Assembly: GCA_024571205.1 (NCBI GenBank)
Contig: GCA_024571205.1_4523.1
Strand: one strand, 5' to 3'
Source: a phage
DNA length: 64,000 nucleotides
A program made the translations under genes and the position numbers. The notes beneath the pieces are model-generated. The model saw only the letters and a program-made list of their open reading frames with translations, was not told the origin of the DNA and did no database searches. Below, in pieces: positions 17,264 to 57,100 of the stretch. Numbering within the stretch: the stretch's first letter is position 1; the number at the start of each line of letters is the position of its first letter.

Positions 17264-17285
17264 GGGAGACTTCGGTCTCCCTTTT
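17264..17285 (+). terminator. rho-independent terminator after gene 32
   Basis: GGGAGAC-TTCG-GTCTCCC hairpin (17264-17281) followed by TTTT. Confidence 0.65.
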
Positions 17286-17312
17286 GAGTATCTGTAAATT
17301 ACTGAAAAAGTT

Positions 17313-17341
17313 GTTTACTTCTTCCATGGATGTGTTAGTAT
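17313..17341 (+). promoter_or_regulatory. T4-type early promoter
   Basis: GTTTACT -35, 16-nt spacer, TAGTAT -10, directly after the gene 32 terminator. Confidence 0.5.
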
Positions 17342-17370
17342 AGACCTATCAACAACATGAGGAAATCAAA

Positions 17371-32110: not shown

Positions 32111-32133
32111 GGGAGACTTCGGTCTCCCTTTTG
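32111..32133 (+). terminator. rho-independent terminator
   Basis: GGGAGAC-TTCG-GTCTCCC hairpin (32111-32128) + TTTT; the hairpin is identical to the one after gene 32. Confidence 0.65.
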
Positions 32134-32164
32134 TGCGTTTAGGGCAGAAAAAGTTTAAAAAGAT

Positions 32165-32193
32165 GTTTACTCTCCTGTAGGATGTGTTACTAT
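32165..32193 (+). promoter_or_regulatory. T4-type early promoter
   Basis: GTTTACT -35, 16-nt spacer, TACTAT -10, just after terminator 32111-32133. Confidence 0.5.
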
Positions 32194-32235
32194 AGACTTG
32201 TACCACCTAATCAATAAAACAAACTGGAGAATAAA

Positions 32236-50706: not shown

Positions 50707-52122
50707 ATGGCATTCACTGTCACGTTATCTCCTTTAACTCCTACAGGGGTTATTGGAGGTTCACAAACATTCACTGCTACACCTGCAGGTGAAAGTCCAG
50801 ATGGTACTATTACATACGTCTGGACTGTAGATGATATAGCACAGGAGTCTACGGCTGCTACAATGGATTATACTCTTGCTTCTCCAGCAGGAACAAAAAA
50901 AATTAAAGTGGTTGCAACTAATACACTTTCCGCAGGAGATCCGGAAATAGCTGAAGCGTCAACAACTATCACTGTTAATAAGAAAGAAAATAATTCTACC
51001 GTCGCTGTTACTCCGGCTTCTCCGGCTGCAGTAGAAATTGGAACAGCAACAACATTCACTGCTAATGTAAGTAATCAACCTAGTGGTGCTGCTATTGCTT
51101 ATACATGGAAAGTTGACGGGGTCGCTGCTGATGGTCAAAAGCAATCAACCTTTGAATATACACCAACATCTGAAGGAACTAAGTCTATAACTTGCTCCGT
51201 CACAGTAACTGCAACTGATTACGTTGATAAAACAGTAGAATCATCAGCGGTTTCTTTGACTGTAAATAAAAAGGCTAATTCTTCAACACTAAAAATTACG
51301 CCTGAGTCTCCGACTACGGTCTTTGGTGTTCCTATTACTTTAACTGCAAATGTCTCTAGTGCACCCTCAGGTGCTACTACATCATTCCAGTGGTCAATGG
51401 ATGACAGTAATATTCCGGATGCAACTTCTGCTACATATAAATTCACTCCAACCGAGGTCGGAAGTAAAACTCTTAAATGCACTGTATCTGTTTCTGCAAC
51501 AAATTATGTTACAAAAGAAATTTCAGCAGAAGCAACAGTAGTAACTAATAATGCGTCATTTAATAGTGCCACCATTTCTTTATCTCCGCCATCAGTTAAT
51601 ACTACTGTTGGTGGAACTGCAACTTTAACAGCATCTGTTACTGGTGCTCCAGGTGATACTAATATTGTGTATTCTTGGAAGAAAGACAACGTAGCAGAAA
51701 GTAATTCTACCAATACTTACAGTATTGATACCTCCTCAGCTGGTACTCATACAATTAAAGTTGAAGCAGTATTAACTAAAGATAATTATACTCCAAAGAC
51801 AATTAGTTCAACCGCTGAAGTTGTTATTGCTGAACGGACTCCAATTGAACCAGAAGGTGAATTACCTTATGTTCATCCTCTTCCACACCGTACTTCAGCT
51901 TACATTTGGTGTGGTTGGTGGGTTATGGATGAAATCCAAAAAATGACTGAAGAAGGTAAAGATTGGAAAATCGACGATCCGGGTAGTAAGTACTACTTGC
52001 ATCGTTATACGCTTCAGAAGATGATGAAAGACTATCCAGAAGTTGATGTTCAAGAATCACGTAATGGATACATCATTCATAAAACTGCGCTAGAAACTGG
52101 TATCATTTATACATATCCATAA
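50707..52122 (+). CDS. hoc: Hoc, highly immunogenic outer capsid protein (four Ig-like repeats)
   Basis: 471 aa with four ~95-aa repeats (e.g. TVNKKENNSTVAVTPASP..., TVNKKANSSTLKITPESP...) and a C-terminal region (YIWCGWWVMDE...); T4 hoc position. Confidence 0.82.
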   Translation: MAFTVTLSPLTPTGVIGGSQTFTATPAGESPDGTITYVWTVDDIAQESTAATMDYTLASPAGTKKIKVVATNTLSAGDPEIAEASTTITVNKKENNSTVAVTPASPAAVEIGTATTFTANVSNQPSGAAIAYTWKVDGVAADGQKQSTFEYTPTSEGTKSITCSVTVTATDYVDKTVESSAVSLTVNKKANSSTLKITPESPTTVFGVPITLTANVSSAPSGATTSFQWSMDDSNIPDATSATYKFTPTEVGSKTLKCTVSVSATNYVTKEISAEATVVTNNASFNSATISLSPPSVNTTVGGTATLTASVTGAPGDTNIVYSWKKDNVAESNSTNTYSIDTSSAGTHTIKVEAVLTKDNYTPKTISSTAEVVIAERTPIEPEGELPYVHPLPHRTSAYIWCGWWVMDEIQKMTEEGKDWKIDDPGSKYYLHRYTLQKMMKDYPEVDVQESRNGYIIHKTALETGIIYTYP

Positions 52123-53794: not shown

Positions 53795-53825
53795 AAAAAA
53801 GGGGACCTTTACGGTCCCCTTTTTT
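53795..53825. terminator. bidirectional terminator between rnlB (+) and gene 24 (-)
   Basis: GGGGACC-TTTAC-GGTCCCC hairpin flanked by AAAAAA upstream and TTTTTT downstream. Confidence 0.65.
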
Positions 53826-55108
53826 CATTCATCTATAATAATTTTAGGCAATTTAACACCAAGTAAAACAGACAAGTCTGAACGTCCTGCCATTTTATCC
53901 ATGTCCCCGCCATCAATTATTCTCGCTTCTTTTTCGTCTTTTGCTACTGTGTAAGGATTTGCTGATAAAGCGTATCTAACCAATAAACCAATAGACGGTT
54001 GCAAGCTTTCTGGATCAACTACAACTTTAAATGCACCAACATGTTCAGGGTCATCTAAGTCGAGACCTTCTGTATACGGGGCATAGAAAATTGATCCAAC
54101 AATTTCTTTTTCACCGATATTTTCTACTACGCCAACGATCACATAATCTAATGGACTGTTAGTATCGCAATAAAGCGGTAAACCATTAGCTAAGAACCCG
54201 TAAGCATTTTGTGAAAGATACTTATCATCTTCTGGTTTATGTTTTAACCAACCTGAAGCAGCAAGAATAGCAGCTGCACGAGCTGAAGCTACACAAAACG
54301 TCGCAGTATAAGTTGACTCTTTTTGAATGTGTGATACCATTTCACACACCATTCGATATAACGAACGACCTGCTTCTGGAGCGGATGCATAGCTCAAGTC
54401 AATAAATCCGGTGTCAGTAATTCCAGTAACTTTATAACGTTTCGATACCGTAATTAAAGACTGAAGAATATCTTTATTAATTTCATCAGCCATTTCAGTA
54501 GCAAGCAAATCTTCTAAGAAGTTAGGGGCATCAAATCCATTCGCTTCCAAATCTTGCGCTAATTCAACCGTGAGACCGGTTTTAAGTTTACGAGATTTGA
54601 CTGAAGTTTGCCATTTATTAATTTGGAATCTTGCATCGGAAATTTCGCTACCGGAGCTTTCAAATTTGCTTGTCACCGCTGCATCTGAAAATAACCGTAC
54701 CTTTAAATGAACAACTGCAATCTGAAGAGCTAATTCTAGATCACTTTCTTGAATATCTGCAAATGGTGTATCTTCTAGCACTTTATAGACGATATTATTA
54801 TATTTGAAAAAATCGCCTTTATTTAGTGTGACTTTTGATTCTTCTGTGAGCTCGGTAATTTTTTCTCGGTCTACATATCCAGCTTCACCTGCATAAGTAG
54901 CACCAGTTTTAAACGTTAATTCGTTGTCTGGGTTAAGATATTTAATACCATAAAAAGCAGCAACAGGTTGATTAGTTCTTTGTGTTGCTACAATGTCAGA
55001 ATATATTAATTTAGTCGTAGCGCGAGTCAAAGCAACGAGATTTGGGCGACCGATTGAGTTGCTAGTAGACGTTGTAGATTCACGCAATAATTTTTGGATT
55101 TTACTCAT
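53825..55108 (-). CDS. 24: gp24 capsid vertex protein
   Basis: 427 aa, same length as T4 gp24; late promoter at 55136-55143. Confidence 0.9.
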   Translation of the reverse strand: MSKIQKLLRESTTSTSNSIGRPNLVALTRATTKLIYSDIVATQRTNQPVAAFYGIKYLNPDNELTFKTGATYAGEAGYVDREKITELTEESKVTLNKGDFFKYNNIVYKVLEDTPFADIQESDLELALQIAVVHLKVRLFSDAAVTSKFESSGSEISDARFQINKWQTSVKSRKLKTGLTVELAQDLEANGFDAPNFLEDLLATEMADEINKDILQSLITVSKRYKVTGITDTGFIDLSYASAPEAGRSLYRMVCEMVSHIQKESTYTATFCVASARAAAILAASGWLKHKPEDDKYLSQNAYGFLANGLPLYCDTNSPLDYVIVGVVENIGEKEIVGSIFYAPYTEGLDLDDPEHVGAFKVVVDPESLQPSIGLLVRYALSANPYTVAKDEKEARIIDGGDMDKMAGRSDLSVLLGVKLPKIIIDE

Positions 55109-55135: not shown

Positions 55136-55143
55136 TATTTATA
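55136..55143 (-). promoter_or_regulatory. late promoter for gene 24
   Basis: TATAAATA on the minus strand, 28 nt upstream of the gp24 start. Confidence 0.5.
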
Positions 55144-55149
55144 AAGATT

Positions 55150-55179
55150 GTTTACAACGTATTTGGTATGTGATACTAT
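55150..55179 (+). promoter_or_regulatory. T4-type early promoter driving the antisense ORF between genes 24 and 23
   Basis: GTTTACA -35, 17-nt spacer, TACTAT -10. Confidence 0.5.
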
Positions 55180-55209
55180 AGACTTATCAACTACAGAGGA
55201 GTAAACAAA

Positions 55210-55479
55210 ATGACTAAAGCACGTTTCTTACGAGATACTTTAAAAGTTCTGGAAGCTGAAGCAGTTAAGTTAGTAGAAAAATACGGTGCAAAAGTTAATG
55301 GTAATGCCTTCAACAAAGTATGGATGAAAGTTGATTCTGAAGCTCGAGCTAAAGGCTATTGGGCCACTGATAAACTTGCATCATTCAAAAACAAAGATGG
55401 TTCTCCAGCATATGTCCAAGAAGGTATGCCTAATTGGCAAAATATTTTGAAAACTTACATCGAAATTGCACAGAAATAA
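55210..55479 (+). CDS. hypothetical protein encoded antisense between head genes 24 and 23
   Basis: 89 aa ORF with its own early promoter (55150-55179), SD gagg and a hairpin immediately downstream (55490-55507). Confidence 0.55.
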   Translation: MTKARFLRDTLKVLEAEAVKLVEKYGAKVNGNAFNKVWMKVDSEARAKGYWATDKLASFKNKDGSPAYVQEGMPNWQNILKTYIEIAQK

Positions 55480-55481
55480 AA

Positions 55482-55507
55482 CCAAAAATGGGAGACCGAA
55501 GTCTCCC
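55482..55507 (-). terminator. rho-independent terminator after gene 23 (minus strand)
   Basis: GGGAGAC-CGAA-GTCTCCC hairpin (55490-55507); on the minus strand it is followed by a U-run (complement of 55484-55488). Confidence 0.6.
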
Positions 55508-55531
55508 AAAATAAGATTTAATCAATTAAGA

Positions 55532-57100
55532 TTAGATGCCTTTTACATATACACGGCGGAAGTAAGCGTTCTTACCAAGGCTGTTCAGGATAGACGGCAT
55601 ACCGGACTGGATGCGAGCACCTGGAGCCTGCAGGGAACTTTCAGCAAACGGGTTAACACCGATACCGTAACGAGTTTTAAAGCCCATTACCGGCTGGAAG
55701 TTCTTAGGATCGGAACCACGCAGTGGGGTAAGTGCAACGTAAGGAGCATAGTAGATACCTGCATCCATTTCGTTAGCGCCTTTGTAACCAACGGTGAAGT
55801 AATCCTGTTTAGCATACTGGTCGATGTATACGCGGTATTTACCACCAAGTACACCGGCAAATACAGACTTAGTAGTGTCGGTATTAAAACCGGAAGCCAG
55901 ACCCTGTGCAGCGTAAGAAATACCAGTATCAACTGAAGCCAGTACGTTAACTACGTTACGGGAAGCGATAATGAAGTTACCTTCACCACGACCGGTTTGA
56001 CGAGCAATTTCAACTGCTTCTTTATCAATCTGGAACAACAGAGATTTAAAGCTTTCACCGGCCCAACGAGCACCACGGATATCAATCGGGTCCTGGAAGT
56101 CAAATACACCAGCTTTAGAACCAGGAGTCAGGGTCATACCAGATTTACCGACCTGTGCTGAGTAGTTAATCCAATCAACAACTTCACGGTTGATTTCTAG
56201 CATAATTTCTGTAGCCAGAATACCGCTCAGTTCAGCATCAGCATCCATACCGTGTACTGCACGGAGGTCTTGTGCTAATTCGATAGAGTAAGCAGCTTTC
56301 AGCTGGCGAGATTTAGCTTCGATAACTTGTTTATCGATACGGAAGCCCATTTCATTCCATGGGTTATCGGTAGAACCGTTGAAACCTTCCTGGAGTTCAG
56401 CGATAGAAGTAGCCATACCTTCAGCGATTTCTACCAGTGCACCAGCTTCCATTTGTTTCTTAACTTCTGCATCTAATTTAGCTGCATCAGTTGCACCAGA
56501 ATCAAGTGTTACGACAGCAGAAGCTTGCAGATATACAGTACCAGTTTCTTGGAAGAAGTGAGTATAGATATCACCTACAACAGTAGTAGTGTCAGCAGCC
56601 AGAGCTGGGAATTTCTTAGCAGCACCCTGACCAGAGAACATCGCGTCTGGGGCATACATCGGATGGAAAGCTTCTTTAGCGCCAGCAGCGATAGGGTCTT
56701 TACCATATACTGCACGGAGAGCAAATACCTGACCGGTCGGGCTGTTCATAGGCTGAACACCACAAATATCAAAAGCGATCAGATTAGGAATAGCACGACG
56801 AACCATACCCATAACGGCCGGCCCAATTTGGGTTACTGCACCAGAGGTTTGACCTGCTGCGATGTTCTGAGCATTATAACCATGGTCACCACCAATTTCA
56901 GCTTCGGTCAAGAAAGAACCAAATGCCTGAGCGATTTTCTCGTCTTTATATTCAGGGGATACTTCGAAATCTTTTTCCTGGTTTTCGAAGATTTTAGCGA
57001 TAATAGCCTGCTTGCTATTAGCGATTTCCGGCAGGCCTTCACCTTCCAGCAGTTCTTTCCATTTGTCTACGAGCTGAGCTTTAGTTTTGATAGTAGTCAT
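55532..57100 (-). CDS. 23: gp23 major capsid protein
   Basis: 522 aa, MTTIKTKAQLVDKWKELLEGEGLPEIANSKQAIIAKIFENQEKDFEVSPEYKDEKIAQAFGSFLTEAEIGGDHGYNA matches T4 gp23. Confidence 0.95.
   Translation of the reverse strand: MTTIKTKAQLVDKWKELLEGEGLPEIANSKQAIIAKIFENQEKDFEVSPEYKDEKIAQAFGSFLTEAEIGGDHGYNAQNIAAGQTSGAVTQIGPAVMGMVRRAIPNLIAFDICGVQPMNSPTGQVFALRAVYGKDPIAAGAKEAFHPMYAPDAMFSGQGAAKKFPALAADTTTVVGDIYTHFFQETGTVYLQASAVVTLDSGATDAAKLDAEVKKQMEAGALVEIAEGMATSIAELQEGFNGSTDNPWNEMGFRIDKQVIEAKSRQLKAAYSIELAQDLRAVHGMDADAELSGILATEIMLEINREVVDWINYSAQVGKSGMTLTPGSKAGVFDFQDPIDIRGARWAGESFKSLLFQIDKEAVEIARQTGRGEGNFIIASRNVVNVLASVDTGISYAAQGLASGFNTDTTKSVFAGVLGGKYRVYIDQYAKQDYFTVGYKGANEMDAGIYYAPYVALTPLRGSDPKNFQPVMGFKTRYGIGVNPFAESSLQAPGARIQSGMPSILNSLGKNAYFRRVYVKGI

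Follow-up and report, generated by a model that had tools for sequence, protein, structure and literature searches.

Small early proteins of T-even phages that are directed at the host include AsiA, Alc, Ndd, MotB, Arn, Dmd, TifA and the internal proteins (Ip), the last of which carry an N-terminal leader for capsid targeting that ends in a gp21 (L/I)xE site. In lambdoid phages, autonomous promoter-gene-terminator units known as morons lie between late genes (Juhala/Hendrix 2000). In T4-type phages, accessory ORFs are shuffled by PeSL (promoter-early / stem-loop) cassettes (Arbiol et al. 2010, PMC2839356; Comeau et al. 2014, PMC4122927). The 2014 paper links these cassettes to adaptive genes that are plastic and non-essential, and their T4/PST promoter consensus is TTTACW-N17-TAYWAT (PMC4122927). 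A terminator of gene 23 has been predicted in all T4-like genomes examined (Nolan et al., PMC1524935).

Here, we analyzed a 64,000-nucleotide stretch of phage DNA (the window), in which a plus-strand ORF of 89 amino acids is located between the minus-strand head genes 24 and 23. The original prediction, made from the letters of the window, described this ORF as a self-contained early cassette. Our results indicate that it is very probably a real early accessory gene in a recombination hotspot, and that it resembles each of the systems above in part.

The promoter of the ORF (TTTACA-17-TACTAT) fits the PeSL consensus, the promoter and leader are repeated in the genome, the unit marks a replacement/indel between close relatives within the conserved core, and the hairpin of the locus is the same GGGAGAC-UUCG-GTCTCCC stem-loop as that of the canonical PeSLs of the window. 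However, no same-orientation stem-loop was found upstream of the ORF promoter, where the start and late promoter of gene 24 lie, and the only stem-loop of the locus is downstream, inverted, and serves gene 23. Because the upstream stem-loop is missing, the locus is PeSL-like and not a textbook PeSL. With T4 segD, the ORF shares the slot, the antisense (early) strand and an early promoter of its own beside the late promoter of gene 24, but its protein is unrelated to SegD and lacks GIY-YIG, and it is thus a cargo-type gene and not an endonuclease. As in morons, a single small gene with its own promoter lies between structural genes, is variable among relatives and is dispensable; unlike morons, it has no terminator of its own, belongs to a virulent phage with no prophage expression, and has a genome-like GC content. 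Size class, early signals, dispensability, patchy distribution and fast divergence are shared with the small early T-even proteins, whereas the product shows no sequence or fold likeness to any solved structure, is basic and not an acidic DNA mimic, and shows by eye no capsid-targeting leader.

Layout and regulatory signals of the gene 24/23 locus

By nucleotide comparison, the window phage is a Mosigvirus, an RB69-like T-even coliphage. The 436 bases around the cassette were 100% identical to Escherichia phage PECP20 and 95-99.5% identical to ~120 other Mosigvirus records. Besides genes 24 and 23, the minus strand carries genes 22 and 21 (names from the NBG1 annotation), and rnlB and other early-strand genes are on the plus strand. 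The 89-aa ORF was present exactly where the original prediction had placed it (Table 1). Its GC content was 35.6% versus 38.1% for the genome, a genome-like value that gives no compositional sign of foreign origin. The position at which the cassette had been thought to start, 55136, is in fact that of the minus-strand late promoter of gene 24, which is kept in all loci compared, the empty site of RB6 included. Two side observations concern the neighborhood. A 471-aa plus-strand ORF, at what we take to be the position of T4 hoc, contains several tandem ~90-aa repeat units and a conserved C-terminal part. Two tandem gp24 paralogues adjoin the ORF in Gaprivervirus, Dhakavirus and related metagenomic contigs, and Mosigvirus and T4 have one.

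Table 1 Coordinates of features in the window and in compared loci (positions are those of the window unless a handle beginning with L, for a compared locus, is given)
Feature	Position	Strand	Remarks
Gene 24 (gp24, head vertex protein)	53825..55108	-	Left conserved flank, outside the cassette; recombination anchor
Late promoter of gene 24, T4-type	55143-55136	-	TATAAATA, read from the sequence; back-to-back with the early promoter
Early (sigma-70) promoter, T4-type	55150..55179	+	GTTTACA 55150-55156, 17-nt spacer, TACTAT 55174-55179, TG extended -10
Leader with Shine-Dalgarno (SD) GAGGAG	55180..55209	+	SD 55196-55201, 8 nt before ATG 55210
89-aa ORF, allele type A, PHROG 6003	55210..55479	+	Stop codon 55477-55479
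Predicted intrinsic terminator of gene 23	55479..55508	-	C(UUCG)G hairpin 55508-55489, then T-run 55488-55479
Gene 23 (gp23, major capsid protein)	55532..57100	-	Right conserved flank
Canonical PeSL units	17264-17353, 32111-32199	+	Hairpin with T-run, ~35 nt, GTTTAC early promoter, shared leader
471-aa ORF	50707-52122	+	
Tandem gp24 paralogues	L002 830-3394; L003 836-3399; L015 337-2901; L029 1338-3897		
SegD homologue behind allele B	L005 1380-2039; L017 881-1540; L018 1304-1963	L017: -	
Leader identical to window 55170-55216	L014 1501-1547		KAW3E185_00139
Broken ORF, RB69 reference (AY303349)	L012 411-651		
Frameshifted ORF, phage mogra	L013 410-678		
Homologue in 'Acinetobacter phage ABPH49' (MH533020)	L009 3495-3761		
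P0006, 90 aa	L015 3001-3273		

The early promoter and the SD proposed for the ORF were both recovered. A generic sigma-70 scan of the local AT-rich stretch returned 2 sites versus 2.4 expected, which is not above chance. In contrast, the phage-specific pattern GTTTAC-N16-18-TANNNT occurred 18 times in the window versus 2.9 times expected (0 of 100 shuffles reached 18), and 17 of these 18 sites were on the plus strand. This excess indicates that the ORF promoter is one of the phage's own early promoters. The same promoter was found at this position in eight diverged loci with otherwise different spacers. Transcription would start near 55186, and the early timing of ORF expression is predicted from the promoter sequence; a literature search returned no Mosigvirus transcriptome.

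The leader motif …CTATCAAC.ACA.GAGGA… recurs behind other such promoters of the window, at 17313, 32165 and 39520. Moreover, the 47 bases at 55170-55216 showed 100% identity with the leader of an unrelated small ORF located elsewhere in other Mosigviruses. By these matches, one regulatory module is common to different genes of Mosigviruses. In the copy of KAW3E185 listed in Table 1, the -10 box, leader, SD and first codons are identical, and the unrelated ORF behind them encodes 54 amino acids.

Downstream of the ORF, a hairpin with a perfect 8-bp stem was found at 55489-55508. Both its extra-stable C(UUCG)G loop and its T-run, TTTTTGGTTT, are read on the minus strand. Read on the plus strand, the hairpin has a CGAA loop and the tail AAAATAAG / AAAAUAAG, so that a stable hairpin with no U-tract is all that remains. 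In RB6, whose 83-bp spacer contains no ORF, a C(UUCG)G hairpin on the minus strand immediately follows gene 23, and the late promoter of gene 24 comes next. The orientation of loop and T-run and the equivalent hairpin in ORF-less RB6 indicate that the hairpin is, as judged from its structure and position, the terminator of gene 23, and that the ORF lacks its own. The UUCG hairpin of the original prediction is thus present, but it does not belong to the ORF, and the unit is not fully self-contained. No convincing plus-strand terminator was found behind the ORF for >2 kb, and an Rfam scan of the region gave sub-threshold noise only. In the whole window, 7 C(UUCG)G hairpins are read on the plus strand and 4 on the minus strand.

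The promoter is directed towards gene 23, the hairpin lacks a U-tract on the plus strand and no convincing plus-strand terminator follows for >2 kb, and allele A, allele B (see below) and segD all keep this orientation and an early promoter. Such an arrangement could yield an antisense ('anti-late') transcript that extends into gene 23 and damps premature capsid-gene expression, with the ORF being secondary. We consider this RNA-level function very improbable. The constraint on the ORF acts at the protein level, the orientation is simply explained by the plus strand being the early strand (17/18 promoters), the spacer of most Tequatroviruses is empty and has no such promoter, and in other phages the members of the family do not lie antisense to capsid genes. 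An early protein-coding gene is the reading that we follow below.

Five states of the spacer and exchange of alleles

The original prediction had placed a GIY-YIG seg gene of T4 at this locus and had suggested an insertion hotspot. T4 segD indeed occupies exactly this slot, on the same antisense strand, and comparison of the 24-23 region across T4-like genomes revealed at least five spacer states. In state 1, the spacer is empty (83 bp), as in RB6 and in most Tequatroviruses, which have no ORF ('most' being judged from a match span of ~1061 bases versus 1401 in the window). In state 2, it holds segD alone with its own TTTACA-N17-TATTAT promoter (T4). State 3 is allele A of the ORF, found in the window and ~120 Mosigvirus records; copies 60-70% identical to it were found in T4-like contigs from metagenomes, and one of these contigs carries two gp24 paralogues, as Dhakaviruses do. 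The Mosigviruses ChristianSchoenbein and AlbertHofmann of the BASEL collection also have allele A. State 4 is allele B, found in Dhakavirus, Gaprivervirus and Tequatrovirus KIT06, and its identity with allele A is 30-38% (about 32%). State 5 consists of allele B, 3 nt, and then a promoter-less SegD homologue, and was found in Mosigviruses LF82-9 and KAW3E185 and in phage F2. The LF82-9-type endonuclease is 57% identical to T4 SegD; T4 SegD passes the SegE_GIY-YIG cut-off (27.8 vs 25 bits), and the LF82-9 endonuclease matches the same profile below it (20 bits). From its position, the SegD homologue seems to be expressed from the early transcript of the allele-B ORF, on which it would be the second cistron. 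The synteny of the ORF with head genes holds in four genera.

Comparison of close relatives showed where these states are joined. Between the window and LF82-9, the adjacent 300 residues of gp24/gp23 are 99-100% identical and the ORF is 32% identical. The flanks of KIT06 are 99.3% identical to those of T4 and RB6, and the slot holds allele B, segD and 83 bp of empty spacer, respectively. Conversely, the ORFs of KIT06 and WG01 are 97% identical, but the N-terminal part of gp24 only 68%. Across these sequence comparisons, the two deeply diverged alleles swap between genera, and allele type is decoupled from flank relatedness. In KIT06, the entire spacer is of Dhakavirus type, from just beyond the gene 24 SD to the gene 23 stop and including a GGGAGAC-type hairpin, and such whole-spacer replacement points to recombination through the coding flanks. 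LF82-9 is identical to the window through GAGGAG and diverges from the very next base, which suggests that this exchange ended in the shared leader. Most exchanges compared swap the whole spacer via the coding flanks, and only the LF82-type swap ends in the leader. This comparative evidence identifies the 23/24 spacer as a hotspot of cassette exchange and homing.

We infer that the ORF unit moves by homologous recombination, for which two routes can be proposed. In the first, the conserved coding ends of gp24 (5') and gp23 (3') would serve as anchors, and the whole spacer would be replaced. In the second, the repeated early-promoter/leader module would be used, much as in PeSL elements. Co-conversion driven by SegD probably aids the spread of allele B.

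The last point also bears on whether the ORF benefits the phage at all. A promoter-less SegD homologue lies immediately behind allele B in LF82-9, KAW3E185 and F2, T4 segD occupies the same slot, allele B has entered both Mosigvirus and Tequatrovirus backgrounds, and the ORF is dispensable. All of this is compatible with the ORF being the passenger of a selfish element, of no benefit to the phage, linked to a SegD-family endonuclease at home in this spacer and spread by co-conversion. We regard this explanation as improbable, since no endonuclease is present in the examined ORF loci of the window, NBG1, VR20, WG01, 04086, KIT06, L015, L016 and L029, ~120 records carry allele A, a dN/dS of ~0.1 is maintained in lineages with no endonuclease, and the homologues in unrelated phage lineages have no endonuclease nearby. 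An accessory gene that is kept for its protein, and whose spread a neighboring endonuclease probably aids in some lineages, is the account that we prefer.

Conservation and dispensability of the 89-aa gene

A tblastn search with the 89-aa protein matched 240 phage records, of which 238 reached a coverage of at least 80%, and the exact protein sequence was present on 262 contigs of public assemblies, where it is always named 'hypothetical'. The protein matched PHROG 6003, a family with no assigned function, with E = 2.1e-45 (residues 1-89 vs profile positions 1-90 of 90), and all 20 of 20 diverse homologues matched the same family. In an HMM search of 1.8 billion representative proteins, only ~7 real family clusters at 50% identity were found, and an IMG/VR scan returned T4-like isolates only. 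ORF length is conserved down to 30% identity across phage lineages. Residues M1, K3, F6, G31, N32, N35 and Q70 are invariant, and L14, N30, A45, S57 and G64 are nearly so. In pairs with unsaturated dS, the Nei-Gojobori dN/dS was 0.07-0.14, and it was 0.12 between the window ORF and P0006 (62% identical). Judged by these substitution patterns, the 89-aa ORF is a genuine gene under purifying selection.

A chance ORF in an AT-rich spacer might have been suspected from the RB69 reference annotation, which shows two tiny ORFs (ORF189c and ORF188c) with no assigned function. These proved to be the fragments of the broken ORF. The comparative data refute this explanation: length is conserved with dN/dS 0.07-0.14 down to 30% identity across phage lineages, the promoter and SD are conserved, and AF2 reached a pLDDT of 94 from a 20-sequence alignment.

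Several natural copies are disrupted. In the RB69 reference, the ORF is broken by +1 and -1 indels plus a substitution cluster; in phage mogra, a 1-bp deletion in an A-run causes a frameshift; and the allele B copy P0015 is truncated. Some of these lesions may be sequencing errors or decay of laboratory stocks, and, taken at face value, they would mean that the ORF is dispensable for growth on laboratory hosts. The original prediction had named disruption of the ORF in otherwise near-identical genomes as an observation against a function. Such disruption was found in RB69 and mogra, but the function of the gene is not thereby refuted, because a dN/dS of ~0.1 indicates that the lesions reflect laboratory dispensability and not a lack of function. 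At least 95% flank identity was seen in ~138 records, versus 121 full allele A matches and 24 partial ones (mostly promoter-only). These numbers, which give an estimate and not a census, fit the presence of allele A or B in almost all Mosigvirus records.

The family extends beyond T4-like phages. In the Vequintavirinae-like phages (ABPH49, L011 and L028), the homologues lie within long arrays of small same-strand ORFs. Another homologue (L010) is on a ~42-kb siphovirus-like contig, distantly related to 42-kb Serratia siphoviruses, where it adjoins a GpJ-type tail-tip gene. No conserved partner or neighbor gene was found across the non-T4 lineages. From this distribution, the PHROG 6003 protein is a stand-alone module that works in phages with unrelated virions. 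This speaks against a part in assembling the T4 head and favors a target that the enterobacterial host provides. Within the non-T4 branch of the family, the closest relative in GenBank is the ABPH49 copy (61% identical); the record, named as an Acinetobacter phage, is classed in Vequintavirinae, and its nearest DNA relatives among the compared loci are Serratia rV5-like phages.

Predicted protein and candidate function

The window protein is basic (pI 9.6) and predicted to be soluble. The pI exceeds 9 in 19/20 family members, reaching 9.9 (8.0 in the exception, P0012), and the net charge ranges from ~+1 to +8. The family is hydrophilic, has no hydrophobic segment, and lacks cysteine in 18/20 members. 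The original prediction had suggested host takeover, superinfection exclusion or anti-defence as possible functions. The absence of a membrane segment argues against an Imm/Sp-type membrane exclusion protein, and the basic pI argues against a DNA mimic. Neither an acidic surface nor sequence or fold likeness to a characterized inhibitor (Ocr/Arn-type DNA mimics, known anti-defence proteins) was found.

AF2 modeling with the 20-sequence alignment gave a pLDDT of 94.2 and a pTM of 0.80 (an earlier run on 7 sequences, with a pLDDT of 64, was discarded). The product is confidently predicted to consist of three helices (3-25, 31-48, 76-88) plus a beta-hairpin (52-60/66-70). That the protein has no recognizable motif had already been noted, and homology scans and AF2/Foldseek fold searches likewise gave no family or structural neighbor. 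Scans of the protein and the 20 family members against Pfam, NCBIfam and PADLOC gave only sub-threshold, inconsistent matches, and Pfam returned no GIY-YIG domain match and no HTH signal for the 89-aa protein. A sequence-profile search of the PDB returned only de novo three-helix designs with E > 0.1. With the pLDDT-94 model, Foldseek found nothing below E = 0.9 in the PDB, and the BFVD search found a family member only. Nothing was found in the literature on RB69ORF188c, 189c or PHROG 6003, and the locus is not mentioned in the accessory-gene screens of Silas et al.

PHROG 8765 ('internal virion protein') was matched weakly, by the window protein with E = 0.09 and by 2/20 members with E = 0.0015. 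Together with the synteny with head genes in four genera, these matches could be read as a sign of a head morphogenesis protein or a packaged internal protein. Such a role is, in our view, hardly probable. The promoter is early and not late; most Tequatroviruses lack the gene, and it is frameshifted in RB69 and mogra, which are viable; and homologues occur in phages with unrelated heads. In addition, the PHROG 8765 match covers residues 52-83 and not an N-terminal capsid-targeting leader, no Ip-like example of which could be seen by eye, and the N-terminus forms helix 1 of the confident compact AF2 fold.

Taking these results together, we consider it somewhat probable that the ORF is an early accessory gene, housed in a hotspot, that encodes a host-directed binder and confers a conditional advantage. 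Host RNA polymerase would transcribe the ORF within the first minutes of infection, and the small basic soluble protein would then bind, in a stoichiometric manner, a host macromolecule that enterobacteria have in common. This macromolecule may be either an acidic protein or a nucleic acid, and is perhaps part of a defence system, and the outcome would be a conditional advantage on some hosts and not a contribution to head assembly. On the host-directed binder as such, our judgment is evenly divided; purifying selection fits any protein-level function and not specifically a host-directed one. A role in counter-defence specifically appears rather doubtful. The ORF is a fair candidate for a host-interaction factor. 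It is conceivable, though speculative, that PHROG 6003 represents a new class of early effectors with a new small fold (N-G-N..N and Q70 invariant) that neutralize an enterobacterial defence or host factor. Alleles A and B, which T-even genera exchange among themselves and share with Vequintavirinae-like and siphovirus-like phages, would then be matched to different target variants. PHROG 6003 is an already catalogued family with no assigned function, and the ORF is an ordinary early accessory cassette.

Within the gene block that they conserve most, T-even phages maintain a variable slot, of which the ORF locus is a well-delimited example. Its five spacer states with mapped breakpoints point to recombination via the coding flanks and the shared promoter/leader, and probably to homing-endonuclease co-conversion. 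The locus rises slightly above routine through this five-state organization, its association with a homing endonuclease, and a fold that is confidently predicted, has no structural neighbor and is common to three phage lineages. Its shortness and dispensability, together with the natural nulls (RB69, mogra) and allele swaps (LF82 series) in near-identical genomes, make the ORF an easy candidate for host-range and counter-defence screens. If a target is found, the phage effector repertoire would gain a new small fold; otherwise, the ORF would be one among thousands of phage genes with no assigned function.

Several matches met during the database searches were rejected. DUF4859 (PF16151) scored 17.9 bits against a cut-off of 22.6 and was matched by 3/20 members, and 'CurA', 'CBASS cyclase' and EcoRI were each matched by 1/20. 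The JGI name of P0006, 'NADPH-dependent curcumin reductase CurA', is spurious, the only NCBIfam match having E = 0.047. The family profile also matched the giant Big_2/filamin (Ig-repeat) proteins P0013 and P0016 with E = 5e-16 and 2e-9. These values sum 8-11 weak repeats, and hhalign of the family against the Big_2/filamin repeat proteins gave a probability of 0.6%. Such repeat-summing artefacts call for caution in reading profile-search tables of this kind.
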